Of a DNA stretch of 64,000 nt, positions 8,704 through 38,793 are shown one piece after another (within the stretch, counting starts at the first letter, position 1; every line of letters starts with the position of its first letter). The stretch comes from Chloroflexota bacterium (GTDB lineage: Bacteria; Chloroflexota; UBA11872). A model generated the notes under the pieces. The model saw only the letters and a list, made by a program, of their open reading frames with translations, had not been told where the DNA came from and did no database searches. Position numbers and translations under genes: made by a program. The DNA is taken from assembly GCA_965198185.1 (NCBI GenBank), contig CBDAOU010000001.1, positions 636,310-700,309 on the forward strand, written 5' to 3'.

Positions 8704-9471
8704 TCAGGGCATCTGGAACCCGCCGTCGTAGCTGATGTTCTGCCCGGTGATGTAGTCGGCTTCCTCCGACAGCAGGAACGCGGTCATGGTGGCCACGTCC
8801 TCGGGCTGCTCGGCGCGGCCCAGCGGGACCAGCTTGATCATCTCGGCGAACACCTCGCCCTCCTGCCGCCCCTGGCGCGCGCCTTTTTCGCGGTCGATCT
8901 TGGCCCACATGTCGGTATCCACGAGCCCGGGGCTGACGGCGTTGACGCGCACCTGATGTGGGCTCAACTCCAAGGCCAGGTTGCGCGTCAGCCCATGAAG
9001 CGCGGTCTTGCTGGTGCTGTAGGCGCCCAGCCACTCCGAGGGCCGGCGGGACGATGCGGAGGAAATGATGACGATGCTGCCCCGGTTTCGCGCCGCCATG
9101 ACCCGCCCCGCGGCTTGGGTAAAGAAGAACGCGCCATCGAGATTGACCGCCATCAACCGGCGCCAGTCCTCGGGAGCCATCTCCAGCAGCGGCCGCACCA
9201 TCAAGATGCCGGCGTTGGCCACCGCGCCGGTCAGCCCGCCCAGGTCCGCATCCACCTCATTCACCCAGGCCGACACGGCGTCGGGGTCGGTGACGTCCAA
9301 CGCGTCGCCGCGCGCGCGACCGCCGCCCTGCTCGATCGCGACCGCCACTTCGGCGGCGCTGTCGCCGTTGATGTCGGACACCGCGACGGCCCAGCCCTCC
9401 CTGGCCATGCGCAACGCGATCGCTCGACCGATGCCGCGTCCGGCGCCGGTGATGGCAAGTGCCCCCGCCAT
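8704..9471 (-). CDS. SDR-family oxidoreductase (short-chain dehydrogenase/reductase)
   Basis: 'TGAGRGIGRAIA' Rossmann motif, 'NAG' motif and a catalytic YxxxK ('YSTSK'). 255 aa. Confidence 0.85.
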   Translation of the reverse strand: MAGALAITGAGRGIGRAIALRMAREGWAVAVSDINGDSAAEVAVAIEQGGGRARGDALDVTDPDAVSAWVNEVDADLGGLTGAVANAGILMVRPLLEMAPEDWRRLMAVNLDGAFFFTQAAGRVMAARNRGSIVIISSASSRRPSEWLGAYSTSKTALHGLTRNLALELSPHQVRVNAVSPGLVDTDMWAKIDREKGARQGRQEGEVFAEMIKLVPLGRAEQPEDVATMTAFLLSEEADYITGQNISYDGGFQMP

Positions 9472-19863: not shown

Positions 19864-20529
19864 GTGGTTGAAAAGGAGATCGTGGCCGAGATTGAGGGCT
19901 TACAGAGAGTCATCGACGGCGCTCGCGCAGTCATCGACAACTTCCGCCCCCACATCCCCATCGACCCTGAATGGCCGGTGGTAGAGCTGGGCAAAGTCGC
20001 ACGCCTTATCAACGGACGAGCCTATACGCGGTCTGAGCTACTGAAAGACGGACCAACGCCGGTTCTGCGCGTGGGGAAATTCTTCTCCAACCGGGAATGG
20101 TTTTACTCGGACTTGCAGCTCAATGACGATAAATATTGCCGGGCCGGAGATCTATTGTACGCATGGTCAGCCTCATTTGGTCCTAGAATCTGGCACTGTC
20201 CAAGAGCAATCTTCCATTATCATATTTGGAAAATCGAAACTACTGAAGATATGAATAAGAAATTTCTCTACTACCTGCTTGATATGGAGTCTGAGAAAAT
20301 CAAAGCAGATGGTCACGGCATCGCTATGATGCACGCGACCGAATCGGGCATGGAGCGTCGCGGATTGCCTCTTCCCCCTCTTGCCACACAGCAGTCAATC
20401 GTTGCGGAACTCGATGAGGAAGAGGGCCTGATCTCCGCCAATCGCAATCTGATCGACCGATTTGAGCGTAAGATCCAAGCCGCCATCGCCCGCGTCTGGG
20501 GCGATGGCGCTAGCCGAACAGTCGCGTAA
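19864..20529 (+). pseudogene. hsdS: type I restriction-modification specificity subunit (HsdS) remnant: a single target-recognition domain flanked by conserved helices
   Basis: 'VAEIEGLQRVIDGARAVIDNF' and 'LPPLATQQSIVAELDEEEGLISANRNLIDRFERKIQA' are the HsdS conserved coiled-coil regions, bracketing an AT-rich TRD. No hsdM/hsdR, no TRD1 and no ATG start. Confidence 0.6.
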
Positions 20530-21133
20530 GCCAAGCGACGAATCTCTGACAGAGATCGCCATCCACGTCGAGGTCTCGGGCTCGGATAGCCAGGCCCATT
20601 TGCCTAGGATCTTCCCGGGCAGCCAGCCAGGCATACAGCTGTGCCCGCACGGTCTTGCTCGCGGCGAACGGCGGGTTAGGTATCTCGTCGATATACCGCT
20701 GCGAAAGCGGCCACACCGGATCGTCCGCCGGGACCATCTGGATCACGAAGTTTTCAAGCTCACCGGCTGAATGGTTGTCAGGCATCACCCAGACTCCGAT
20801 GCGGGGCCTGTCGCTGGTGCTATTGATGATGGTTCCTGACGCTTCGGGTGAGCTTGGGATGCAAACGTCCTCGTCGGCAAGGCGATCTCTTACGGCGTCC
20901 CAGCGAGCCGGGACATTGTGGTTGGCGTCTACGACGATCCCGATCGACTGACGCCCTGGAGCAAGGATGTCCGCGCCAAGATCATCCAGCAGCGTATCAA
21001 TGCCACCCTTTGGCTCAACGTGAAAGGACGTTGACGGTTCGCAGCGCTCACATATCCGCGCCACGACATGCTTCTCATCCGGACCTTCGACAATGAGCAC
21101 ACGGCTCAGCGACGCTGACCCAGGAAGCGACAC
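20510..21133 (-). CDS. DUF4276-like (Toprim/OLD-nuclease-like) protein, partner of the upstream ABC-type ATPase
   Basis: 207 aa with an N-terminal 'VLIVEGPDEKHV' (EGxDE motif, as I recall for DUF4276). Starts 4 nt after the ATPase stop. Lower GC. Confidence 0.55.
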   Translation of the reverse strand: MSLPGSASLSRVLIVEGPDEKHVVARICERCEPSTSFHVEPKGGIDTLLDDLGADILAPGRQSIGIVVDANHNVPARWDAVRDRLADEDVCIPSSPEASGTIINSTSDRPRIGVWVMPDNHSAGELENFVIQMVPADDPVWPLSQRYIDEIPNPPFAASKTVRAQLYAWLAAREDPRQMGLAIRARDLDVDGDLCQRFVAWLTRLFG

Positions 21134-21136
21134 AAG

Positions 21137-22231
21137 CTATCTGACTTCGATACCGCTTCTGGCTGCGGCCTTGAGGTTCAGCTCCGAGTACTCGACCGCG
21201 CGGACGGCATCACCGTCCCTCTCGAGTCGCACAAGGGCGGCTTCCACTTCATCGACGTCCTCCGCCGCCTGCGCAAATCCCCTCACACAGTCCCAGCCAT
21301 GTGTGGTAGCCAACACCTGCACGTTGTTCGCCTGCGCCGTCTTTAGCACCATGGTCCAGAAATCACGCTGAATCGAGTGATGGATGCCGTTTTCCACTTC
21401 ATCAATTAGCAAGAACCCGTCTTTGCAGTTGGCGAGGGCTAGTGCAACGCCGAATATGCGCATAGCTCCGTCGCCGAGACTTTTCAAGGGAACCGGACTG
21501 TGATCGCCTACAATTCTTACAAATGGACGCTGGCTATAACCGCCTATATAACGCCCGTCACTGCTAACCATGGCGATACGTTCAATCTGGTCGCCAAGAG
21601 CTGCATTCAAGGCTTGGATCGCTCGCTGCTCGTCATCGGTAAGGACCGCTCTATCCCAGAATCTCGATACAGTATTATTGTCCAAGATATCCGGGCCTAG
21701 ATATTCATAGACAATCTCATTTGTTCCTGTCATCTCTGGAATGCTTTCTCGAAATCGTTTAAGAGTGATATGCGGGTGGTCAGTTAGCGTAATGCTTCGC
21801 TCGCTACCCTGGAATTCAGCGGTCAGAAGATGTCCCATATATTCTCCAAATGCTCCCTCTTTGGCCATTGGCGTGGTAACGCATACTTTGTCGGAGCTTA
21901 TCGGCCCTACTGAAAAAAAAGTGTCAGGATGGATGGTCCTGCCGTTGAATACAGCCTTCCAATTCAATACTATGATTAGATCGCCGTCATCATCGACGCC
22001 CTCTCCGTGCTCTTGTCGGTCATACAATATCTTCGATATGACAGAGTAGTCCCCGCGTGATGCAAAAACCCTTACGGCGTCAAGCAAGGTCGTTTTACCT
22101 ACGCCATTTTTGCCGGCGAACAGCGTCACGCGACCCAAGCGTCGAATCTCAAGATCGTCGATCCCGCGAAAACCGTTAATCGACAAGCTGGGAAGGTGCA
22201 GTGCTTCGGCGGTAGCTAGTATTTTAGACAT
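21137..22231 (-). CDS. ABC-type (AAA_21/AAA_15-like) ATPase
   Basis: Walker A 'GKNGVGKTT', Walker B 'LLIDEVENGIH', D-loop/H-loop 'LATTH'. 364 aa. Noticeably AT-richer than flanking genes. Confidence 0.8.
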   Translation of the reverse strand: MSKILATAEALHLPSLSINGFRGIDDLEIRRLGRVTLFAGKNGVGKTTLLDAVRVFASRGDYSVISKILYDRQEHGEGVDDDGDLIIVLNWKAVFNGRTIHPDTFFSVGPISSDKVCVTTPMAKEGAFGEYMGHLLTAEFQGSERSITLTDHPHITLKRFRESIPEMTGTNEIVYEYLGPDILDNNTVSRFWDRAVLTDDEQRAIQALNAALGDQIERIAMVSSDGRYIGGYSQRPFVRIVGDHSPVPLKSLGDGAMRIFGVALALANCKDGFLLIDEVENGIHHSIQRDFWTMVLKTAQANNVQVLATTHGWDCVRGFAQAAEDVDEVEAALVRLERDGDAVRAVEYSELNLKAAARSGIEVR

Positions 22232-23406: not shown

Positions 23407-23721
23407 ATGCCGCGCATCGCTTTTGCCCTGCCGATCAAGCCCGACAAGATTGACGCCTACCGGGAGACTCACGCCAACGTGTGGCCCGAGTTGCTGGCCG
23501 AGAATACCGTCGCGGGCCTTCGCAACTACACCATCGTGCTCTTCGGCCATCACGCCATCGGCCTGCTGGAGTGCGACGACTGGGATGCCGCGACGGCGTA
23601 CCTGGCGAAGTCGGAATCGCAGCTGCGCTGGCAAGAGCTGCACAAGGACATCCTGGACGTGGACATGAGCACGGGCCTGGTGCCGCTGGAGATGCTGGAC
23701 GAGCTTTTCCACCAGGACTGA
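23407..23721 (+). CDS. L-rhamnose mutarotase-like (RhaM/DUF718 family) protein
   Basis: 104 aa. 'MPRIAFALPIKPDKIDAYRETHANVWPELLAE...NYTIVLFGH' resembles RhaM 'M.R.AF.M.V.P....Y...H.PIWPEL'. Confidence 0.6.
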   Translation: MPRIAFALPIKPDKIDAYRETHANVWPELLAENTVAGLRNYTIVLFGHHAIGLLECDDWDAATAYLAKSESQLRWQELHKDILDVDMSTGLVPLEMLDELFHQD

Positions 23722-23841: not shown

Positions 23842-25530
23842 ATGCCTCCGTTGCCGCGACCCAACAGCGCCGCCATGACCGAAGGCCCGGCGCGCGCCCC
23901 CGCACGCTCAATGCTCAAGTCCATCGGCTTCGCCGACGAGGACCTGCGACGTCCGATCGTCGGTGTGGCGCACCAGTGGATCGAGACCATGCCGTGCAAC
24001 TTCAACCACCGCGAGATGGCCGAGCACGTCAAGGCCGGGGTGCGGGCGGCGGGCGGCATGCCGGTGGAATTCAACACCATCTCCGTCTCCGACGGCGTGG
24101 CGATGGGCACCGAGGGGATGCGCGCATCGCTGGTGAGCCGCGAGGTCATCGCCGACTCGATCGAGCTGGCGGCGCGGGGCCACTGCATCGACGCGCTGGT
24201 GGTGCTCGTCGGCTGCGACAAGACCATTCCGGCGGGCGCGATGGTGCTGGCGCGGCTCAACCTGCCCGGGCTGGCGTTCTACACCGGCAGCATCGCCCCG
24301 GGCGTTCACCGCGGCCGCGACGTCACCATTCAAGACGTGTTTGAAGGCGTGGGCTCGCACGCGGCGGGGCGCATCGACGACGCCGAGCTGTTGGCCCTGG
24401 AGGACGCCGCCTGTCCCGGCGCCGGGGCCTGCGGGGGGCAGTTCACCGCCAACACCATGGCCACCGCGCTGGAGTTCCTGGGTATAAGCCCGGCGGGCGC
24501 CAACGCGGTTCCGGCCACCAACGCGGCCAAGGCGCAGGCGGCGGTTGCCGCCGGCGAGCTGGCCGTCGACCTGCTGCGGCGCGATGTGCGCCCGCGCGAG
24601 GTCATCACCCGCGCGTCCATGGAGAACGCCATTGCCTCGCTCGCGGCGACCGGCGGCTCGACCAACGCGGTGCTGCACCTCATGGCCATTGCCCACGAGG
24701 CCGGCGTTGCGCTCGAGTTGGAGGACTTCGACCGCATCGCCGAGCGCACGCCGATCATCACCGACCTCAAGCCCACCGGCCGCTACGTGGCATCGGATGT
24801 CCATGCGGCCGGTGGCCTGGCCGTCGTCGCCGCCGAGCTGGCGTCGCGCGACTTGCTGCATGCGGACGCGCGCAACGTCGACGGCCGGACCGTGGCGGAG
24901 ATTGCCGCCGCCGCGCAGCGGTCGGACGCCGCCGGTGACGTGATCACGAGCATCGACGCGCCGGTCAAGGCCAGCGGCGGGATCGCCATTCTGCGCGGCA
25001 ATCTGGCTCCCGACGGCTGCGTCGCCAAGGTCTCCGGACAGGAGGCGACGCCCTTCAGCGGGCCGGCTCGGGTCTTCGACGGCGAGGCCGCGTGCTACGC
25101 GGCTCTTGAGGCTGGTCAGATTGCTCCCGGCGACTTCGTGGTGATTCGCTACGAGGGGCCGGTGGGCGGTCCCGGCATGCGCGAGATGCTGCAGGTGACG
25201 GGCGCGCTGCAGGGCGCGGGCCTGGGCGACTCCGTGGCCCTGATGACGGACGGACGGTTTTCGGGCGCCTCCCACGGCCGCATGGTCGGGCACGTGGCGC
25301 CCGAGGCCGCCCATGGCGGGGCCATTGCGATCGTGCGCGACGGCGACCGCATCACCCTCGATCCCGTGGGTCGCCGGCTGCAGGTTGCTCTCTCGGACGA
25401 GGAAATCGCCGAGCGCCTGGCGGCCTGGAGCCCGCCGCCGGCGCGCTATCCCGGCGGCGTGATGGCCAAATACGCCGCGCAGGTGTCGTCGGCGAGCGCG
25501 GGAGCCGTGACCAGCATCTTCACGCCCTAG
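23842..25530 (+). CDS. ilvD: IlvD/EDD-family dehydratase (dihydroxy-acid or sugar-acid dehydratase)
   Basis: '[10 protein letters not shown]' and '[16 protein letters not shown]' Fe-S cluster motifs, C-terminal 'SGASHG'. Start possibly at the internal Met at 23875. Confidence 0.85.
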
Positions 25531-29700: not shown

Positions 29701-30681
29701 CTAGATTCCGCCCCCAAGCGGCTGCCCAAGGGCGTCGAGCCGGCAGACTTGCTCCAGCAGCCGCATGCTGTGCACCACGTCGTGGATGCTGGTGAGCGGC
29801 TCGCGGCCCTCGCGCACGCAGTCCCGGAAATCACGGTGCAGGGCAGCCACCCCATCGTCCAGCTGCCCGTGCGGGTCGCCGGTGAGGCTGGCGGCGTCGA
29901 GGATTTCGGGCGCGTCGGCGCCGTCGGCGAAGACCTCGCCATAGGAGGGCGGGCGCAAGTAGGCGCTGATGCCGTTGCCGTGCAGCTCGATCCGGTAGTA
30001 ACGGCTGCCGGCGTGACCGATGGCCGTGTGCACCGCCAGCGCGCCTGACGTGAACGCGATGACGGACTGGCTGGCGTTCATCCAATCGGTGTAGGCGTTG
30101 TCAACGCGGGCGTGCGCCTCGTCCCACTCCCCGCCGCACACCCAGCGGATGAAGTCGACCATGTGGATGTCGCGGTCGTACATCACGTTGATCCGCAGCG
30201 ACTCCGGCGGCTGCTGCGCGGGGTGCTTGTTCATGCCCGCCAGCACGAAGCGGATGGGGCCGCGGGCCTCCAGGCGTTGCTTGGCGGCGCGGATCAGCGG
30301 CGTCCAACGCCGTTGCAGCGCCACGCACGCCAGCCGGTCGTTGCGCCGGGCGGCCGCGGCAATGCGGGCCGCCTCCGTCGAGTTGGCGCCGGGCGGCTTC
30401 TCGACCATCACGTGCTTGCCCGCGTCCAGCGCGTCCACGGCGACCTGGCAGACGTGGTAGGGCTGCATGATGGCGTAGACCACGTCGCAGTCGACCTCGT
30501 CGAGCATGCGGCGGTAGTCGGTAAATCGCCGCGGGATGTCAAAGGTATCCCCGGCGCGCGCCAGCCGCTCCGGGTCCAGGTCGCAGACGGCCTCGAGGCT
30601 GACGTCGTCCGCGTCCGCGAGCTGGGGGTAGTGCGCCCGCGTCGCCCGTCCTCCGGCCCCGATCATGGCGGCCTTGAGCAT
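29701..30681 (-). CDS. Gfo/Idh/MocA-family NAD(P)-dependent oxidoreductase
   Basis: N-terminal Rossmann 'MIGAGGRATRAHYP', 'EKP' motif (VMVEKPPG) and a C-terminal alpha/beta domain. Confidence 0.85.
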   Translation of the reverse strand: MLKAAMIGAGGRATRAHYPQLADADDVSLEAVCDLDPERLARAGDTFDIPRRFTDYRRMLDEVDCDVVYAIMQPYHVCQVAVDALDAGKHVMVEKPPGANSTEAARIAAAARRNDRLACVALQRRWTPLIRAAKQRLEARGPIRFVLAGMNKHPAQQPPESLRINVMYDRDIHMVDFIRWVCGGEWDEAHARVDNAYTDWMNASQSVIAFTSGALAVHTAIGHAGSRYYRIELHGNGISAYLRPPSYGEVFADGADAPEILDAASLTGDPHGQLDDGVAALHRDFRDCVREGREPLTSIHDVVHSMRLLEQVCRLDALGQPLGGGI

Positions 30682-30745: not shown

Positions 30746-31933
30746 ATGCAGCCCGTGTCCTATCAGCAGGTCCTAGCCCGGCTGGACCCCGAGGCCATCG
30801 CGCGGGACACGCTGGCCTTTGTCCAAGTTCCCAGTGAGACGGGCGCCGAGGGTGCCGGCGGCGAGTACTTTGCCGCGCTGTGCCAGCGCGCCGAGCTCGA
30901 AATCGAGATCGACCGATTCATCGCCGACCGGCCCAACGTCTACGCACGCCTTCCGGGGACCGAGCGGGGACGTCCGTTGATGTTGAACGGCCACGTGGAC
31001 ACGATTCCGCGCGGCGACAGCGATCCGCCGGAGCTGCGGGACGGCTGGGTGGTGGGGCGCGGCGCGGAGGACATGAAGGGCGGGCTGGTGGCGATGGTGC
31101 ACGCGGCGTCGGCGCTGCGGCGCGCCGGAGTGCGGCTCGGCGCGGACCTTTGGCTGACGGGAGTCGTCGGTCACGAAACGCCGGTGGGCAAGAAGGAAGG
31201 ACCGAAGCGACTGGTGGAGCGCATCCGCGCGGGCGACATCCCGGCGGCGGCGGTGATCATCGCCGAGGGTCCGCACGCCATCTGGACGGCCGGGCTGGGC
31301 GCGGCGATGTTCCGCATCACGCTGAGCAGCGCGCGGGGCATCGTGCACACGCTGCACGTGCCCTACGCCGACAACCCGGCGCGCTGGGCGGGCGCGATGC
31401 TGGAGGAGTTCGCGGCTTGGGAAGCGCGGTTCGAGGACGAGACGCCGCATCCGCTCTGTGGGCGGCAGCGGGTCGACATCGGCCTGGTCGCGGGCGGCGA
31501 CTATCCCAACCGTCTGCCGACGCCCCTCACGCTGCGGGGCACGCGGCGCTGGCGGCACGGATTGACGGCGGCGGACATTGAGTCGGAGCTGCGGGACCTC
31601 TGCCGGCGCATCGAGGAACGGTCGGGGCTGCAGGCGACGTTTTCGCTGGACGCGCCGCACGAGCCCTTCGAGACGCCCGCGGACCACGCGCTGGTGCGGG
31701 CCTTGGAGGCCGCGGCGACGACCGCCACCGGCGCCACGCTGCCACGGATCGGCCTGGGCCTGGTGACCGACGCCAACATCTACGCCAACGACGCGTCGCT
31801 GCCGGTGGTCTGCTGCGGCCCCGAGTACGCCACGGCCCACTCCGACAACGAGCGCGTGTCGGTCGAGCGTCTGCACCGAACCGCCGCGCTTTACGCGCTC
31901 GCGGCTATGGAGTTCTGCGGCGTCGAGGGCTGA
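30746..31933 (+). CDS. M20-family metallopeptidase (ArgE/DapE/acetylornithine deacetylase-like)
   Basis: 'LNGHVDTIP', 'GAEDMKGGL', 'HETPVG' metal-binding motifs. 395 aa. Confidence 0.8.
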   Translation: MQPVSYQQVLARLDPEAIARDTLAFVQVPSETGAEGAGGEYFAALCQRAELEIEIDRFIADRPNVYARLPGTERGRPLMLNGHVDTIPRGDSDPPELRDGWVVGRGAEDMKGGLVAMVHAASALRRAGVRLGADLWLTGVVGHETPVGKKEGPKRLVERIRAGDIPAAAVIIAEGPHAIWTAGLGAAMFRITLSSARGIVHTLHVPYADNPARWAGAMLEEFAAWEARFEDETPHPLCGRQRVDIGLVAGGDYPNRLPTPLTLRGTRRWRHGLTAADIESELRDLCRRIEERSGLQATFSLDAPHEPFETPADHALVRALEAAATTATGATLPRIGLGLVTDANIYANDASLPVVCCGPEYATAHSDNERVSVERLHRTAALYALAAMEFCGVEG

Positions 31934-32279
31934 CGACACGGGCCTGAAGCCGGGGAGTCGCGGTGCGCGACGAGCGGTGGAAACACGTGGACTACCGCGG
32001 CTTTGCGCCGTGGCTCTTCGACCGGGTGGACGACCCGGAAGAGCGCCACGACTTTGCCGCCGACCCGAAGTCGGACGGCTTGACTTAGTGGGAATAAGAC
32101 GTTGGGCCAAGAGATTATTCCCTTGACCAGTGGTATGCATTGCATTATCCTCCTCTAGCAAGGGAGTAGTCCATTGGTGAGGCGCATGAAATTCAACTTC
32201 ACCGTGGATGTGCGCGGCATTGATACCGATTCTCTTTTCCGGCGCCTCTACGAGGTCCGCACGCACGGTGGGCAATCCC

Positions 32280-33083
32280 ATGTCTGACCGGCGCTACACG
32301 ATGGCTAAGCCGTACTGGCGCCAGCTGCTGGACTCGGCGCGTGTCGTGCGAGGTGTCTTGGGGGCGGCGCTCGCCCTGTGGGTCATTCTGCGCATGTTGG
32401 GGATTCTCGACGCTTGGGACCTGCTGACACTCACTTTGGTCATCGCCGGTCTCGCCTGGCTGATTGACCTCGGCCCGCGCAACCCGTCCGGGTGGCTTGT
32501 GGTCGGCGCCGGCATCCTGGTGCAGGTGAGCCATCGCGGCGCGTTCAGCGGCGGCGTGCAGCTGGGCATTTGGCTGGCCTTCGCGATCGTTGCCTTGGGC
32601 GCCCTGTGGCAAAACGGGACCATCCGCACGCGTCGCACGGTGCGCTTGCGAGGGTGGAAAGACAGCCACGTGGATCTCAATTACACCGGGGGCACGCTGC
32701 GCGCCAGGGGCGACGTCCGGCGGGGCGAGATTACCTGTCGGCTGTGCGACGTCGTTGTCGATCTGCGGTACGCCGACATCACCCGTCCGCCGGCGATCCT
32801 CGATGTGACGTGCGTCGTGGGCCGGCTGGATTTGGTGGTACCGATCTGGTGGCGTGTCGGCCAAAACGTCAACACCACGCTCTCGCGCCTGGTGCTCGAG
32901 GCGCGCCTTGCCGGGGAACACGGCAGTCCCAGGTCCGGCTCGTGGATTGGGCGCATGCGGCCGGTCGGAAGCCGTAGGCGCGGCGTCCGCGAGGGCGGAG
33001 ACCCGGAGCCGGACGCGGGCTTCGTGAACCTGCTGGTGCAAGGGTCGTCGCACCTGGGCCGCATCCGGATTCGCCACACCTGA
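32280..33083 (+). CDS. membrane protein with a LiaF-like/DUF2154 beta-rich C-terminal domain, copy 1
   Basis: N-terminal TM helices, then repeated beta-strand segments 'NYTGGTLRARGDVRRGEITCRLCDVVVDLRYADI...DVTCVVGRLDLVVP'. Start at the Met at 32280 or 32301. Confidence 0.55.
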   Translation: MSDRRYTMAKPYWRQLLDSARVVRGVLGAALALWVILRMLGILDAWDLLTLTLVIAGLAWLIDLGPRNPSGWLVVGAGILVQVSHRGAFSGGVQLGIWLAFAIVALGALWQNGTIRTRRTVRLRGWKDSHVDLNYTGGTLRARGDVRRGEITCRLCDVVVDLRYADITRPPAILDVTCVVGRLDLVVPIWWRVGQNVNTTLSRLVLEARLAGEHGSPRSGSWIGRMRPVGSRRRGVREGGDPEPDAGFVNLLVQGSSHLGRIRIRHT

Positions 33084-33307
33084 CGACCGGCGTTCGCTAG
33101 GACGGGCCACTCATCGATCCTCCGGTTATTCGGAGCGCCAGCGAGGAATCTGCGGCCATCCCGGTGACCTCGATGGCTGCCGGTGGTCTGCTGCGGCCCG
33201 GAGTACGCCACGGCCCACTCGGACCATGAGCGCGTGTCGGTCGAGCGCCTACACCGGACCGCCGCGCGGTACGCCCTGGTGGCGATGGAGTCTTGCGGCG
33301 TAGAGGG

Positions 33308-33475
33308 CTAAGGCGAATCCGTCGGCGGCCAATTGCGCGACCTGCTCTCGTGCTCCTTACTGAGCCATCCGAGGTACCGGAAGACACGCCACAGCACCGC
33401 CACCAATAGAAAGAACCCCAGCGCCAGCACCACGTACACGGCGATGATCAGGATCTCGAGCGGTCCGAGCGGCAT
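33308..33475 (-). CDS. small hydrophobic protein (55 aa, one TM helix)
   Basis: 'MPLGPLEILIIAVYVVLALGFFLLVAVLWRVFRYLGW' preceded by GGAGG 6 nt upstream of the ATG. Lies in the spacer between the duplicated segments. Confidence 0.35.
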   Translation of the reverse strand: MPLGPLEILIIAVYVVLALGFFLLVAVLWRVFRYLGWLSKEHESRSRNWPPTDSP

Positions 33476-33711
33476 TTCTAACCTCCGCGTCATTGGCCTG
33501 GTGGACGCCGCACGCCGTCCAAGCTAGCGCGCCGGCGGGCTCCGTCGCGCGGTCCGACCAAATCGACGCTTTGCTAGGCTCCAAATTGAGGAGTGCTGCA
33601 TGCAATTCACCGGGCATCTGTCACGGGACGAGCGCAGGTTCAGCACCGGCGCAATGCGCGATTCCTCGAAGGCCGGTCGCACGATCCAATGCGCCCACAA
33701 GGGTCGTCCGA

Positions 33712-34515
33712 ATGCCTGACCGGCGCTACACGATGGCTAAGCCGTTCTGGCGCCAGCTGCTGGACTCGCCACGTTTCATGCGAGCGGCCTTTGGCATGTC
33801 CGTGTTCTTTTGGATCATCCTGCGCATCACCGGGGTCCTCGATATCTGGGACCTGCTGACGATGATGCTGGTGCTCTTTGGTCTCACCTGGATGAATGAC
33901 CTCGGTCTACTCAATCCGGTCGGATGGCTTGCGGTTGGCGCCGGAATCCTGGTGCAGGTGAGCCATCTTGGCGAGTTCAGCGGCAGCGTGCAGCTGGGCA
34001 TTTGGCTGGCCTTCGCGATTGTTGCCTTGGGCGCCCTGTGGCAAAACGGGACCATCCGCACGCGTCGGACGGTGCGCTTGCGGGGGTGGAAAGACAGCCA
34101 CGTGGATCTCACCTACACCGGGGGCACGCTGCGCGCCAAGGGCGACGTCCGGCGGGGCGAGATCACCTGCCGGCTGTGCGACGTCGTTGTCGATCTGCGC
34201 TACGTCGACATCACGCGTCCGCCGGCAATCCTCGACGTGACGTGCGTCGCGGGTCGGCTGGATTTGGTCGTCCCGATATGGTGGCGCGTCGGCCAAAACG
34301 TGAACACCACGCTCTCGCGCTTGGTGCTCGAGGCGCGCCTCGCCGGGGAACACGGCAGCCCCAGCCCGCGCACGTGGTTTGCGCCGATTCGGCCGGGCGG
34401 CAGCGGTAGACCCGGCGTCAGTCAAGGCGGCGATCCGGAGCCGGACGCGGGCTTTGTGAACCTCTTGGTGCAGGGGTCGTCACACCTGGGCAGGGTGCGG
34501 ATTCGCCACGCCTGA
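33712..34515 (+). CDS. membrane protein with a LiaF-like/DUF2154 C-terminal domain, copy 2 (tandem paralog)
   Basis: ~85% identical to copy 1. C-terminal halves are near-identical at the nucleotide level. Confidence 0.55.
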   Translation: MPDRRYTMAKPFWRQLLDSPRFMRAAFGMSVFFWIILRITGVLDIWDLLTMMLVLFGLTWMNDLGLLNPVGWLAVGAGILVQVSHLGEFSGSVQLGIWLAFAIVALGALWQNGTIRTRRTVRLRGWKDSHVDLTYTGGTLRAKGDVRRGEITCRLCDVVVDLRYVDITRPPAILDVTCVAGRLDLVVPIWWRVGQNVNTTLSRLVLEARLAGEHGSPSPRTWFAPIRPGGSGRPGVSQGGDPEPDAGFVNLLVQGSSHLGRVRIRHA

Positions 34516-34787
34516 CGACGGGCGGTCGCTACGACGCGTCCACCCGTCCACTTCCGGTCATTCCGAGCGCCAGCGAGGAATCTGCGGCCGTCGCGGTGAC
34601 CTCGGCGGCAGCCGGTGACTCATCCCTGCGCCTCGGGTCGAACGTCTGAGATTCCTCGCGATGCTCGGTATGACAACCGGGGCAATCGGAACGCGAGCGA
34701 AGGGACCGAGTTCCCAGGCTGCACGCAGCCCGGGCCACCGGGAAGCGTGGGCCACCGGCCGAGGCTCGAAGTTGAGATAGGAAGCGA

Positions 34788-35639
34788 TTAGCCTTCGGGC
34801 GCGATGAGGATCTCGTTGCGGGCGCGGAGGGCCAGCGTCTCGTTGTAGAGCGTGGGCGGTCGGCGTGGCAACGGCGGCGCGGTGGGCGTTTTGGATGGAT
34901 CGCGGAGCGCCCGGCGGTCCCGCCCCCGCACTTCCCACCACCAGTGCTCAGTTGCCAGCGGCTCGACCTCCCGGCGGAGAATGAACTCCGCGCGGTCCCA
35001 GGCGCTGAAGGCCGCGTGGGCCAGAAAGACCCGCGACACCATGGCGCCGTCCCACTCTTCGAGATCGGGCAGCGCCAGCGGCCCCGTGTCGACTTGAAAC
35101 TGGCCCTTCGTCCGCTCGATGTTGATCGTGCGAATCGGGTATTCCAGCGTGACGGTCAGCCCCCGCGCGCCGTCGTGGTAGGTCGTGCGGGCGTTCAAGC
35201 GTTGCCCAGCCCGCACCGCGCGCATCACCTCGCGGGTGTCGCGTGTCGGCTTCGAGCCTGAAACCACGTGGGTCGTGAAATGCGTGCCGGCGAAGCGGCC
35301 GGCGTGAGGCGTGGGGGCGGTCGGCTCGCGCTCCGCAGACGGGCGCGTGGCGATGGGGATGCCGTGCGTGCGGCTGAGCACCACCCGGAACTCCTGGCTG
35401 GGGACCTGGAACAGGTTGCGGTCGGCGATGGTGTACTCGGCAAGACAGGGTTGCAGCAGGAAGATTTCAAGCGGCGGCGCGTCATCCTCGCCGCGGATCG
35501 TGCACACGGCGTCGTAGCCGATGCGCACGTGATAAGCGTCGCCCGGCTGGCCCACGAAGCCGCCGGGGTACTTGTAGACCGGGTCCGGCCGGTGGGGCAG
35601 GTGGTCCCAGGTGAAATGCGAGCGCGCGAAGTCGATCAT
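34788..35639 (-). CDS. hypothetical protein, 283 aa, unknown family (paralog A)
   Basis: No motif I recognise. Shares 'MIDFxRSxxTW...PDPVYxYPGGFVGxPG...NLFQVP...RLNARxTY...FLAHAAF...EFILRR' with the upstream gene. Confidence 0.55.
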   Translation of the reverse strand: MIDFARSHFTWDHLPHRPDPVYKYPGGFVGQPGDAYHVRIGYDAVCTIRGEDDAPPLEIFLLQPCLAEYTIADRNLFQVPSQEFRVVLSRTHGIPIATRPSAEREPTAPTPHAGRFAGTHFTTHVVSGSKPTRDTREVMRAVRAGQRLNARTTYHDGARGLTVTLEYPIRTINIERTKGQFQVDTGPLALPDLEEWDGAMVSRVFLAHAAFSAWDRAEFILRREVEPLATEHWWWEVRGRDRRALRDPSKTPTAPPLPRRPPTLYNETLALRARNEILIAPEG

Positions 35640-36487
35640 TGGCGCACCGATTCAGAGGCCCGCAGGATGGTGTTGACCGCCGCCAATTCCCAGGTTTCGT
35701 AGTAGCCGGACGCGCGCGGGCGGGGCCGTTCGGGTTCGACTCCCGGCACGTGCCGCTCGTACCGATCACGCCCGCGCACGGCGGCCGCCCAGGCCAGGTC
35801 GTGCTCGGCCACCTCGATGCTCCGCCGCAGGATGAACTCCACGTGATCGTCGGCGGCGAAGGCCGCGTGGGCCAGGAAGACCCGATCGACTCCAGCGCCA
35901 TCCCAAGTGGTCAGGTCTGGGAGCGCCACCGCGCCGGTGCACACCTGATAGCGGCCGCCGCCGGCGTGCAGGTTGATGAGCTTTATCGGGTATTCGACGG
36001 TCACCGCGAGGCCCTGCACGTTATCTCGGTAGGTGGATCGGGCGTTGAGGCGGTCGCCCGCCAGGGAGGACGCGACGATCGCGTCGTCGGTCACGAGCGC
36101 CGCGGCATCGAGCGTGCGCACGTCGATGGCGACTCCGCGAACCGCGCCGCCGATGGGCTGCCGCCGCGTGCCCTCGTCATGCCAGCTGGGCTCGGCGGCG
36201 ATGGGGACCGTGAACGCGTCGCTGACGGCGGCGCGGAACTCGCCGTTGGGCACCTGAAACAGGTTGTCGTCGGCGATGATGAACTCGGAGCGGCAGGGCG
36301 CGGTGAGATAGATCGTGCACGCGGTACCCCGCGCCTCATCGACGATCTCGCAGCCGGCGTCGATCTGGAGTCGGCTGGTGGTGGCCTCGCCCGGCTCGCC
36401 GACAAAACCGCCCGGATAGGCATAGACCGGGTCGGGCTCGGCCCACTCGATCGTCCAGGTGATGAAGGATCGGTTGAAGTCGATCAT
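35636..36487 (-). CDS. hypothetical protein, 283 aa, unknown family (paralog B)
   Basis: ~45% identical to paralog A with the same length. Stop/start ATGA overlap at 35636-35639. Confidence 0.55.
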   Translation of the reverse strand: MIDFNRSFITWTIEWAEPDPVYAYPGGFVGEPGEATTSRLQIDAGCEIVDEARGTACTIYLTAPCRSEFIIADDNLFQVPNGEFRAAVSDAFTVPIAAEPSWHDEGTRRQPIGGAVRGVAIDVRTLDAAALVTDDAIVASSLAGDRLNARSTYRDNVQGLAVTVEYPIKLINLHAGGGRYQVCTGAVALPDLTTWDGAGVDRVFLAHAAFAADDHVEFILRRSIEVAEHDLAWAAAVRGRDRYERHVPGVEPERPRPRASGYYETWELAAVNTILRASESVRQ

Positions 36488-37103
36488 GGATCAGCCGGCG
36501 GAGCCTGGCGCATCCCCCACGGTGGACCTCTCCCTGCCACGGCGCCCGGGCTGGTGAGGATAGCCCGGCGGCGGCGGGATCGACTATCCATCGGCGCACG
36601 CCGTAGCTGTCCGGTCCCGGATCGCGCCACGAGCGGGATGTCCGCGAACGTATCGATCTCGAAGCTCCTCCGGTGCCTTATTGCTTGACGAACGCGGCGG
36701 GGAGTCCACCACCCGAGGTTCCCTTCGTAGGGATGCGCTGCCAAGCAGCAGCGCGTGAGTGGGGTGGAATCCGCTGCGAACTGGAAGCCCGAGATCGTGT
36801 TTGACAAGTTACCGCTCGAACATTCGCAGGCCATAATAGACACCAAGAACTCAAGTGTTCATAGGCGGTGGACTTGAAGCTGGTTCGAAGTGGAGTGTGA
36901 TCTTTCTCGCATGTGGTATCGCGACCTACGTCCACGGTTCAAGCCACGTTTTCGGTCGGCCTATATGCCCCCGTGTGCGGTCCTTCTTCGTTGTCTCGCA
37001 CTCCCGCAAAGTGGTAGCATGGTAGATATCGGGGAGTGCCGTGAGAGGGGGGCGTATGCGTGACGCGGAGACCACGGTGCCTATCCAAAGAAGGAGGACC
37101 GCC

Positions 37104-37373
37104 ATGCCCCCACGGCGCCCACGTGAAGAGGCGGTCCGCCTCGGCAAGGAGAAATACCACCGGGACATCCTGCCTCAGGTCGAGGCTGACCACTTTGGAG
37201 AGTACGTCGCCATCGACATTGAGACCGGGGACTGGGCCGTTGCCGACACGACCCGCGTTGCGGTGGAGCGGCTGCGAGCGCGGCGGCCCGATGCTGTCGA
37301 TGTCTTGTGTGAGCGCGTCGGATACCGGGCGTTGCGCAGCTTCGGGGCCGGGTCCCTGCGGAAGACCGGGTGA
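37104..37373 (+). CDS. small hypothetical protein (89 aa) co-transcribed with a retropepsin-like protease
   Basis: AAGGAGG Shine-Dalgarno 7 nt upstream of the ATG at 37104. 'EADHFGEYVAIDIETGDWAVADTT'. Stop overlaps the protease GTG (GTGA). Confidence 0.6.
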   Translation: MPPRRPREEAVRLGKEKYHRDILPQVEADHFGEYVAIDIETGDWAVADTTRVAVERLRARRPDAVDVLCERVGYRALRSFGAGSLRKTG

Positions 37374-37741
37374 TCGAGGGGGTTGTGAATGCCGCCCGTG
37401 AAGCAGTGGTTCCCCTACACCTACAGGGGCCAGAGGGGCGGACCCGGGAGATCGAGGCCGTGGTCGACACCGGCTACAGCGGTTTCTTGACGCTGCCAAC
37501 TGCGTTGGTGGACGAGATAGGGTTGCCGTTCGCTTACATTGGCCAGGCGCTTCTGGCCAACGACGCTGCGGTCGATTTCGACGTTCACTACGTCACCGTG
37601 CTCTGGGACGGCCAACCGAGAGACATCGAGGCCGACGCGACGGGCAGCACCCCTCTCGTGGGCATGCTGCTCCTAGACAGGCATGACCTGAGCATCCAGG
37701 TTCGGGACGGCGGGCGAGTCCTCATTCAGGCTACGGCATAG
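37370..37741 (+). CDS. retropepsin-like (clan AA) aspartic protease
   Basis: 123 aa with 'VVDTGYSGFLTLP' (DTG motif). Second copy of this family in the window. Confidence 0.7.
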   Translation: MIEGVVNAAREAVVPLHLQGPEGRTREIEAVVDTGYSGFLTLPTALVDEIGLPFAYIGQALLANDAAVDFDVHYVTVLWDGQPRDIEADATGSTPLVGMLLLDRHDLSIQVRDGGRVLIQATA

Positions 37742-37755
37742 ATAATGAATATCGC

Positions 37756-38793
37756 ATGGCTGATGGGATGAGCGAACGGCTGGACATTGCCTACTACTAT
37801 CCCGCGCCCTTTTGGGGCATGGGCGAAGGCAGCTGGATAGAGTCGCTGCTCCTGTTCTTCGATAAGGTCTCCATCCTGCTGCCGGGCTATATATACGGGC
37901 GACATCATTCCGCCGACCCCGTGTTGGCCGAGCCGCTGGAAGACTAAGGTTTGCTGGAGGTGCTCGAACCCAACAAGTGGATAGACCAGGACATGACGAA
38001 GAAGCTGGTAGAGACTGTCAGCGACCTGCTTGCTAACGGTGTGTTCGACAACCTTCCCGGAGAAGTCTATTTCCACGAATTGTCTCAGTCCCGCATGGGC
38101 TACGGGGCCGATGTTGATCTGGCTGAGTCGCTGATATCGAGACTTCGGGCGAAGGGGCTTGCGAAACCGAGCGAGGATGGCGTCTCGATACCCCTCCACC
38201 CGACCGTACGCACGACCATCCTCGTCATCCTCGCCCAACTTGCGCGCTCGGCAGGCAACAAACATAACCTGTCCGTCCACCCTGCTACCCAAGACGGACG
38301 CGCCCTCAAAGACCTCATTGATACCTTATCGAACGAGCGGATGCCTTCCCGCGGCAATGTAGTTGCCCTTGACCTCGAACCCGTCAGCTTCAACCTGGAC
38401 CCAGTGCCTCTTGACGAACTCCTACAATTCCGAGCCGAGCACCATGAGGCGCACCGGGTTTATATGCGTAACCTGCGAGGGTTCATGATGGAGCTTTCCG
38501 ACATCGATAGCCTGGAGGATAGAGCGGCCCTTCTCCTACAGCGACGCCAGGAAATCTCCGACGCTGCTCACGAACTCCAACGCTCTACTCGAATAGCACT
38601 GGGAGTAAACCTTGCCTCATGGTCCCTGGGAATCGCTGGCAGCGCATGGTCGGCTACGACTGGCGACCCGCTCGGAGCCGTGCTTGCGACGTTGGGGCTA
38701 GGCTCAAGCATCGTCGGCTTGGTGGCCACGTCCTCGAACAAGGTCACCGCTTACTCCTATCTGTTTCACGTGCAACGCACCTTTGCGGGGTAA
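37756..38793 (+). pseudogene. 345-aa unknown-function ORF interrupted by a single in-frame TAA (37945-37947)
   Basis: ORFs 37756..37947 and 37951..38793 are in the same frame: '...AEPLED*GLLEVLEPNKW...'. N-terminal 'YYYPAPFWGMGEGSW', C-terminal Gly/Ala/Ser-rich hydrophobic segment. Low GC (~50%). Confidence 0.45.

Follow-up and report, generated by a model that had tools for sequence, protein, structure and literature searches.

The window analyzed here, a stretch of 64,000 nucleotides (nt) from a Chloroflexota bacterium, carries on its minus strand two overlapping genes, paralog A (positions 35636 to 36487) and paralog B (34788 to 35639), each of which encodes a protein of 283 amino acids (aa). 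The two proteins belong to a family that is undescribed in every library we searched. It is new at the level of both protein family and fold, because it is absent from the libraries and because a confident structural model finds no neighbor among solved structures. In the reading that we favor, to which we give a probability of roughly one in two, the family comprises cytoplasmic, cofactor-independent enzymes that act next to an NAD(P)-dependent dehydrogenase of sugars or polyols while imported carbohydrates are broken down. We infer the enzymatic nature of the proteins, their coupling to a dehydrogenase step and the formation of a heteromer by A and B from the evidence described below.

A protein family and fold absent from the libraries

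A word-indexed search of 5.8 billion proteins for close relatives retrieved 453 relatives of A, nearly all of them 282 to 287 aa long; none had a precomputed Pfam domain, and all those with a name were labelled "hypothetical protein". When 1.84 billion cluster representatives were searched exhaustively with a HMMER profile, 594 proteins were returned at E<=1e-3 (337 of them at E<=1e-10). Many of these were about 240 aa long and aligned with the core of the profile (positions ~36-228); alongside the ~284-aa family there is a wider superfamily with relatives of ~240 aa. The hosts are uncultured Chloroflexota, Latescibacterota, Gemmatimonadota, Poribacteria and Acidobacteriota. Every family locus comes from a metagenome-assembled genome (MAG), and no homolog was found among 72,556 plasmids.

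In an alignment of 92 diverse superfamily sequences, with a mean column identity of 22%, residues E68, P167 and Q181 were invariant, and S7, R39, C65, P80, Y166, N172, T184, G185, A206 and Y262 were conserved in at least 90% of the sequences; the family alignment contained no invariant histidine. The retention of polar residues across phyla suggests an enzyme.

The sequence-only reading of this DNA had called the family unrecognised, and that description agrees with our searches of Pfam-A 2025, NCBIfam 2026, PADLOC, PHROGs, PDB sequences and, by Foldseek, PDB and BFVD structures; the profile searches placed the pair in no characterized family. Against Pfam-A and NCBIfam, A and B gave no match at E<=10 except noise (HDPD, E=0.55), and no family was common to more than two of the 92 superfamily members (best E=0.0013). 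The hidden Markov models (HMMs) of PADLOC and PHROGs matched neither A and B nor five unannotated neighbors. No HMM match was obtained for the lactonase and mutarotase families SGL, Amidohydro_2, Lactonase, Aldose_epim, RhaM and RbsD_FucU, nor for DUF1080 and AP_endonuc_2. Proteins of the DUF6807 or "PmoA-like" family (PF14100) are frequent neighbors of GFO/IDH/MocA genes, and the PF14100 HMM matched none of A, B and the 92 members. We also compared a profile of the close family (A1) and one of the superfamily (A2) with 177,635 PDB sequences: A1 had no match, and the best match of A2, 4rho (E=0.03), was rejected, as it aligned over the His-tag/TEV linker of that entry.

The AlphaFold2 model of A built from the 92-sequence alignment reached a pLDDT of 93 and a pTM of 0.90; the predicted fold is mostly beta, with about 16 strands, two to three short helices and long hairpins. 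Foldseek against 350,542 PDB chains gave no match at E<=0.001 (best E=0.048, probability 0.23, TM 0.13-0.20), and the same model had no match in BFVD, so that the absence of a known fold is judged against solved structures (PDB) and viral models (BFVD). A first model, built from 20 sequences, had a pLDDT of 77 and likewise no Foldseek match; since the rerun with 92 sequences still found none, poor model quality can be ruled out as the cause. No jelly-roll, GH16-like or TIM-barrel chains were present among the Foldseek PDB rows, and the galactose mutarotase 1l7k appeared only at E=2.1 and TM 0.11. Comparison of the N- and C-terminal halves with hhalign (residues 36-80 against 141-183, P~0.005, probability 7-9%) gave a weak hint of internal duplication.

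Two coupled genes under purifying selection

Both genes begin with ATG, A being the upstream and B the downstream gene of the pair, and the TGA stop codon of A overlaps the start codon of B in an ATGA at 35636 to 35639. The sequence-only reading had described two tandem open reading frames (ORFs) of this length, translationally coupled; both ORFs are as it claimed, and the coupling is borne out by the related genomes, 10 of 10 of which have ATGA or GTGA at the junction. It had put the identity of the paralogs at about 45%; the paralogy stands, with a measured value of 47% (BLASTP, 135/285 identities over the full length), and the E-value of 8e-75 indicates relatedness far beyond chance. The skeleton of motifs that it listed (MIDFxRS, PDPVYxYPGGFVG, NLFQVP, RLNAR, EYPI, ALPDL..WDG, RVFLAHAAF and EFILRR) is present in full in the A/B alignment, and its statement that signal peptides are missing is consistent with the absence of a hydrophobic N-terminus from A and B.

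That A and B are real genes follows from purifying selection on both (median dN/dS of 0.28 for A and 0.22 for B in 45 genome pairs) and from their hundreds of homologs; one database protein, P0001, is 100% identical to A. At 0.69, the GC content of the pair region does not differ from the background of the window. A long ORF antisense to A (35639 to 36688, plus strand) was dismissed as an artefact of high GC. The 455-aa protein P0215, which matched the profile in two stretches, proved to be a frameshifted read-through of A and B in alternative frames, that is, a gene-calling artefact and not a fused tandem.

Neighboring genes across lineages

Eighty loci on contigs from GTDB, taken at one genome per species, were analyzed together with the window, and the copies in these 81 loci were located with a local HMM. 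For the survey of neighbors, all ORFs of the loci were clustered and the cluster representatives scanned against Pfam, with Pfam-annotated gene calls at eleven places. Naive same-strand ORFs in high-GC DNA gave antisense artefacts (c360/c368 in locus L012), which were discarded against the called genes.

A GFO/IDH/MocA oxidoreductase gene was the immediate same-strand neighbor in 18 loci. It lies directly downstream, at gaps of 4-122 nt, in 15 loci of Latescibacterota and Gemmatimonadota, flanks the family gene on both sides in Litorilinea, and is downstream in L061 and L073. The adjacent GFO proteins share only 25-40% identity across clades and are not mutual best hits; being non-orthologous, they indicate an association with a reaction type rather than with one co-inherited gene. 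Other oxidoreductases occupy comparable places. An aldo-keto reductase (AKR) gene is directly upstream in eight loci (seven of Poribacteria and L020), a zinc-dependent alcohol dehydrogenase (MDR) gene adjoins the family gene in five Caldilineaceae, and PhyH dioxygenase genes adjoin it in 13 loci, on the same strand in 7.

Further neighbors were each seen in single lineages: an FAA-hydrolase family gene (L072), an MR_MLE enolase-type gene (L038), Amidohydro_2 (L057), CN_hydrolase (L045/L048) and DAO (L028/L059). Components of sugar or peptide ABC transporters adjoin the family gene in L013, L028, L082 and L095, and a sulfatase and sugar substrate-binding proteins do so in other lineages. In L095 a co-directional operon comprises SBP_bac_5, three permeases, BNR_2, an AKR and the family gene. 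BNR_2 sialidase-like propellers form part of two superfamily representatives, which carry the two domains in opposite orders; the sources of these fusion proteins name them sialidase or glycoside hydrolase.

A distant subfamily of ~250 aa is located in a conserved catabolic operon (L087, 863-14725; L091, 1-12171). This operon encodes GFO, the family protein, FAA_hydrolase, a GntR regulator, a PALP enzyme, an MlrC-like peptidase and an AstE/AspA-type deacylase together with a Dpp-type ABC importer; it contains two GFO/IDH/MocA genes, and in L091 a class-III aminotransferase gene is added. Its substrate may be a nitrogen-containing sugar or a compound similar to a compatible solute.

When the partner enzymes were compared with NCBIfam, all scored far below the equivalog cut-offs and showed generic similarities only. 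The sub-threshold resemblances were, for example, to inositol, levoglucosan and xylose dehydrogenases and to galactonate or arabinonate dehydratases; for the FAH-family neighbor, the best NCBIfam row, also below the cut-off, was 2,4-didehydro-3-deoxy-L-rhamnonate hydrolase.

An ancestral cluster dispersed in the window

The most divergent genome that holds both an A-type and a B-type gene is L094, whose A-type protein is 64% identical to A. There, next to a RecJ gene on the minus strand, A is followed by B after 10 nt and by a GFO/IDH/MocA gene after a further 100 nt; genes for an ILVD_EDD dehydratase and a RhaM mutarotase lie convergently next to this A-B-GFO unit, and a gene for an SDR is nearby. 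Orthologs of all of these partners are found in the window. The GFO/IDH/MocA NAD(P) oxidoreductase gene (29701 to 30681, minus strand like the pair; PF01408/PF22725) is the ortholog of the gene directly after B in L094, to whose product its own is 71-73% identical, and it lies about 4 kb from the pair. By tblastn, the RhaM-type mutarotase gene (23407 to 23718, plus strand) matches an L094 gene with PF05336 at 74%, and the ILVD_EDD-family dehydratase gene (23842 to 25530, plus strand) matches an L094 gene with PF00920/PF24877 at 86%; the SDR gene at 8707 to 9471 is the ortholog of the L094 SDR gene.

In the window B is separated from the GFO gene by an opposite-strand block (30746 to 34515, plus strand), which has no counterpart between these two genes in L094 and is context, not part of the system. 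It contains an M20 peptidase gene (30746 to 31933, plus strand) and two tandemly duplicated genes for hydrophobic proteins (32208 to 33083 and 33493 to 34515, plus strand). A further opposite-strand block, between the GFO and ILVD_EDD genes of the window, contains genes for an acetyltransferase, a 311-aa unknown protein, Fic and GPP34. In L084, a closer relative, the order is interrupted in the same way as in the window. The arrangement in L094 and the orthologs in the window point to an ancestral A-B-GFO/IDH/MocA operon inside a small sugar-oxidation cluster with the RhaM mutarotase and the ILVD_EDD sugar-acid dehydratase beside it, from which two insertions would have pulled A-B, GFO and ILVD_EDD/RhaM apart in the window. 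On gene order, the mutarotase and the dehydratase are likely pathway partners of the pair.

Copy number and divergence of A and B

The sequence-only reading had raised the question whether duplication is universal in the family. The answer is no, as the family gene is single-copy in 68 of the 81 loci, and because most loci have a single copy, a heterodimer, if any, would be lineage-specific. Tandem pairs occur only in the window, in nine MAGs of closely related Chloroflexota, several of them from sponges (L001-L009), in a Baikal Chloroflexi MAG (L035) and in two Acidobacteria (L043 and L053). All 10 genomes of the window clade have both copies and the 4-nt overlap, as ATGA or GTGA, and an overlap so strictly kept favors stoichiometric co-production of A and B. 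In the L035 pair the second copy follows a 29-nt gap and has its own ribosome-binding site.

In a neighbor-joining tree the two L035 copies are sisters, while A and B of the window clade fall into two distinct old lineages, that of B lying closest to the second copies of the Acidobacteria. Orthologs of B (at least 69% identity) are confined to the narrow clade that holds the A-type, the next matches being single-copy proteins at about 50% identity; every tandem locus of the window clade that was examined, and also L094, holds both types. Of 78 residues conserved in at least 95% of 68 single-copy proteins, 64 are retained in A and 66 in B, and the losses are mostly at different sites. Those of A include F9, P15W, V38S, Y69F, T70I, S81N and P186A, and those of B include A63Q, R66L, L132T, C183D and W266L, of which R66L and C183D are common to B and the Acidobacterial B copies. 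The superfamily-invariant residues E68, P167 and Q181 are present in both. The loss of different, otherwise conserved residues makes either a heteromer or a split specialization plausible, and a heteromer and a pair of specialized isoforms both fit the data.

In the Acidobacteria the second copy has an N-terminal twin-arginine signal and the first copy has none (L043, 1327-1468; L053, 10864-11004; signal sequence MAKRSTRRQFIH...AGPAC, with the motif TRRQFIH...). The apparent gap of 140 nt between the copies encodes this signal of the B copy, and an AGGAGG ribosome-binding site precedes the signal. Export by the twin-arginine translocation (TAT) system can extend to a signal-less partner, a known mechanism termed hitch-hiking; the Acidobacterial copies would either reside in different compartments or be exported in this way together. 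RR-type signals were also seen in two superfamily representatives, P0247 and P0267.

Proposed function and alternative explanations

We propose that the family processes the product of the dehydrogenase, for example by hydrolyzing or isomerizing a sugar lactone or keto-sugar, or that it prepares the substrate of the dehydrogenase. Compared with the non-phosphorylative pathways of deoxy-sugars, the cluster in L094 has the mutarotase, the dehydrogenase and the dehydratase for the sugar acid, with no recognised lactonase annotated among its genes, which would make hydrolysis of the lactone, or another change of the dehydrogenase product, a concrete candidate. A and B would derive from an old duplication and be made in equal amounts through their overlapping stop and start codons, probably as a heteromer or as two co-expressed, specialized isoforms. 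A narrower proposal, that A and B are subunits of one obligate heteromeric enzyme whose fold is unrepresented in the PDB, acting at a so far unassigned step coupled directly to a sugar dehydrogenase as, for example, a new lactone hydrolase or keto-sugar isomerase or lyase, appears to us rather unlikely.

Several observations weigh against the proposed function. The pair in the window is no longer in an operon with any enzyme. GFO-like ORFs are abundant (114 within +/-10 kb in 60 of the 80 loci), as are GFO/IDH/MocA, AKR, PhyH, sulfatase and TIM-barrel genes throughout these genomes; the adjacency of GFO genes is only about 4-fold enriched, and 15 of its 18 cases belong to one syntenic clade. 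Many loci have unrelated neighbors, such as glycogen synthase, CinA, an exopolysaccharide (EPS) locus or housekeeping genes. The sequences of the family, whose enzymatic role is a prediction, show no catalytic motif of any known type. The Amidohydro_2 family includes known sugar lactonases, and its gene next to the family gene in L057 weakens the case for a missing lactonase and speaks against a universal lactonase role. Lastly, the Acidobacterial twin-arginine signal, found on B only, argues against a heterodimer that is both obligate and cytoplasmic, unless B takes A along on export.

Among the alternatives, the one we regard as a real, if tentative, possibility is that A and B are independent homo-oligomeric isoenzymes with diverged substrates, co-transcribed after subfunctionalization and forming no heteromer. 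The predominance of single-copy loci shows that the ancestral protein works without a paralogous partner, and both copies retain the three invariant residues; the residues exchanged in each copy (R66L and C183D in B; Y69F, T70I and P186A in A) lie beside conserved motifs, as would be the case for altered specificity. The apparently different compartments of the Acidobacterial copies and the spaced L035 pair with its own ribosome-binding site point the same way. The strict 4-nt overlap in the window clade and the confinement of A-type and B-type orthologs to one clade, in which every tandem locus examined has both, count against this alternative, and TAT hitch-hiking could account for the one-sided signal. 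An improbable alternative is that the protein is no enzyme at all, and serves as a ligand-binding or accessory protein (substrate-binding, regulatory, or an assembly or partner subunit) for the oxidoreductases or the BNR_2 glycosidases. The absence of a recognisable catalytic motif or metal-binding His/Asp cluster would suit such a role, as would a predicted all-beta fold with long hairpins, found in many binding modules, and the fusion to BNR_2 catalytic domains in both orders, which resembles a carbohydrate-binding or accessory module. However, a protein of ~284 aa with invariant polar residues (E, Q, R, N, Y, S and C) along its whole length looks more like one with an active site, and catabolic operons encode it as a separate cytoplasmic protein, at the positions of enzymes.

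It is very improbable that the family consists of distant members of the FMN- or heme-binding split beta-barrels, carrying flavin or heme like the NohD/PipS proteins of PF04299. This idea arises from a phmmer match of A to NohD in the PDB (9oqs, E=0.055), from 3u5w, 2arz, 6m09/6m0a, 2ig6, 5jv4 and 2iab among the top Foldseek rows of both models, and from the TAT export of a few members, which is frequent for cofactor proteins. The NohD alignment, however, has an excess of A, R and P (bias 2.5), with gaps across the EYPI motif; the heme ligand H57 of NohD falls opposite D145 of A, a variable position in a family with no invariant His. Moreover, B and both family profiles retrieve no NohD or PF04299 protein, and the Foldseek rows have probabilities of at most 0.23, TM of 0.1-0.2 and rmsd of 11-15 Å. 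With no match to the PF04299 HMM either, we rejected the homology as a compositional match, effectively refuted. A toxin-antitoxin, defense or mobile-element cargo module is scarcely credible. The low-GC islet and an overlapping pair of small genes next to A, and a PtuA/OLD-like ATPase gene 13 kb away, could be taken to suggest one; against this, PADLOC, PHROGs and the plasmid collection yielded no match, the GC content of the pair is that of the genome background, and the family is chromosomal, usually single-copy, and located in catabolic operons across phyla.

Comparison with known systems

The closest mechanistic analog of the system that we favor would be the oxidative "3-keto" pathway of glycoside cleavage, in which a GFO/IDH/MocA glycoside 3-dehydrogenase works with a xylose-isomerase-like TIM-barrel lyase and a DUF1080 jelly-roll lyase/hydratase (bioRxiv 10.1101/2024.03.25.586180), that is, a GFO-type oxidase with accessory lyases and hydratases of diverse folds. 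In both cases a non-Rossmann, partly all-beta accessory protein is encoded beside GFO/IDH/MocA in carbohydrate-uptake operons, and some members and partners have TAT signals. Unlike that pathway, our family has no sequence match to DUF1080 or AP_endonuc_2 and no Foldseek match to PDB jelly-rolls or TIM barrels; most of its members are cytoplasmic, and its partners include AKR and MDR dehydrogenases, which are foreign to the pathway.

The non-phosphorylative route of the L-rhamnose/L-fucose type (LRA1-6, fuconate) proceeds through a mutarotase, a sugar 1-dehydrogenase, a lactonase and a sugar-acid dehydratase, and ends with an aldolase or with a dehydrogenase and an FAH-family hydrolase. The RhaM, GFO dehydrogenase, ILVD_EDD dehydratase and SDR genes beside A-B in L094 resemble this set, as do the FAH-family, MR_MLE dehydratase-type and Amidohydro_2 genes adjacent in other lineages. 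In contrast to the route, the partners fall below the NCBIfam equivalog cut-offs and the family matches no known lactonase or mutarotase; the link is one of neighborhood only.

Pairs of a sialidase (BNR) and a GFO/IDH/MocA oxidoreductase act in anhydro/dehydro-sialic acid metabolism, with YjhC as the oxidoreductase (PMC7315737). Genes for a BNR-type propeller and an NAD(P) oxidoreductase likewise accompany the family gene in L020 and L095, and the BNR_2 fusions are a further likeness. The oxidoreductase of L020 and L095 is, however, an AKR and not YjhC-like, no nanA/K/E was seen, and the hosts of the family are free-living or sponge-associated. NohD and the piperazate synthases (PF04299) form heme-dependent split barrels, with H57 as the axial heme ligand in NohD (PMC12576811); the likeness is confined to the borderline phmmer match of A and low-probability Foldseek rows to other split barrels, and the profiles, paralog B, the conserved motifs and the position of the heme ligand all fail to support homology. 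The A/B family belongs to none of the protein families of these systems.

Other features of the window

The pair had been described as flanked by an inverted-repeat-bearing spacer and a low-GC islet. The spacer contains only two short hairpins; the spacer and the islet are unrelated to the pair. One hairpin, with 10-nt arms, lies between the convergent genes 54-75 nt past the stop codon of B (34713 to 34734) and is a weak candidate terminator; the other, also between the convergent genes, is at 34517-34548. Both fit ordinary terminators. Neither a consensus terminator/promoter scan of the spacer nor Rfam gave, respectively, anything convincing or a family match. A 65-nt segment of the spacer (34553-34617) repeats 33121-33185 at 89% identity, a consequence of the tandem duplication of the neighboring gene with a period of 1432 nt. 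This duplication spans 32208-34617, its two gene copies showing 79-89% nucleotide identity, and the repeated unit carries a fragment of 44 aa from the N-terminus of the M20 peptidase at 33177-33308. The duplicated gene is single-copy (302 aa) in L084, and the hydrophobic proteins had no match in Pfam, PADLOC or PHROGs.

Divergent from A, two small overlapping genes of 110 and 123 aa occupy 37041-37741 on the plus strand. They are 97% identical to their L084 orthologs, compared with 81-94% for their neighbors; the second (123 aa) has a D-T-G motif reminiscent of retropepsin-like proteases, and the searches found no family or PDB match for either. Next to them, 37756-38793 (plus strand) is the ortholog of a 345-aa unknown protein of L084 (93%), in which an in-frame stop at 37948-37950 leaves ORFs of 63 and 280 aa; the interruption is possibly a pseudogene or a sequencing error. 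This gene falls in the islet of 60-62% GC flagged by the sequence-only reading. The lowest GC content of the window (53-56%) is at 20510-22231 on the minus strand. An ORF of 364 aa within it (21137-22231) has an N-terminus like those of OLD-family, PtuA (Septu) and retron-associated AAA ATPases, with matches in the PDB to 9n69 (E=7.5e-6), 6p74 and 8ee4, and a 207-aa ORF is next to it; the region is a candidate for a horizontally acquired defense module.

Implications

Unnamed "dark" families are numerous, and the biological setting proposed here, an accessory enzyme of sugar catabolism in uncultured marine bacteria, is an ordinary one; without a function, the family is a promising lead rather than a surprise to the specialist. 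If our reading holds, a family with a new fold, almost restricted to uncultured lineages, has escaped all curated libraries, and its genes lie in operons for carbohydrate degradation, which are regarded as a basis for the way of life of sponge symbionts and other marine heterotrophs. Its reaction, once assigned, would supply a missing piece of the oxidative sugar pathways, and the protein would be a new scaffold for enzymes. Should A and B prove to be an obligate heteromeric enzyme, they would fill a missing step of oxidative sugar degradation in uncultured, largely sponge-associated Chloroflexota, Poribacteria and Latescibacterota. On the reading we favor, too, the conserved pair would offer a natural experiment in which a homomeric enzyme splits into two specialized, co-translated subunits.

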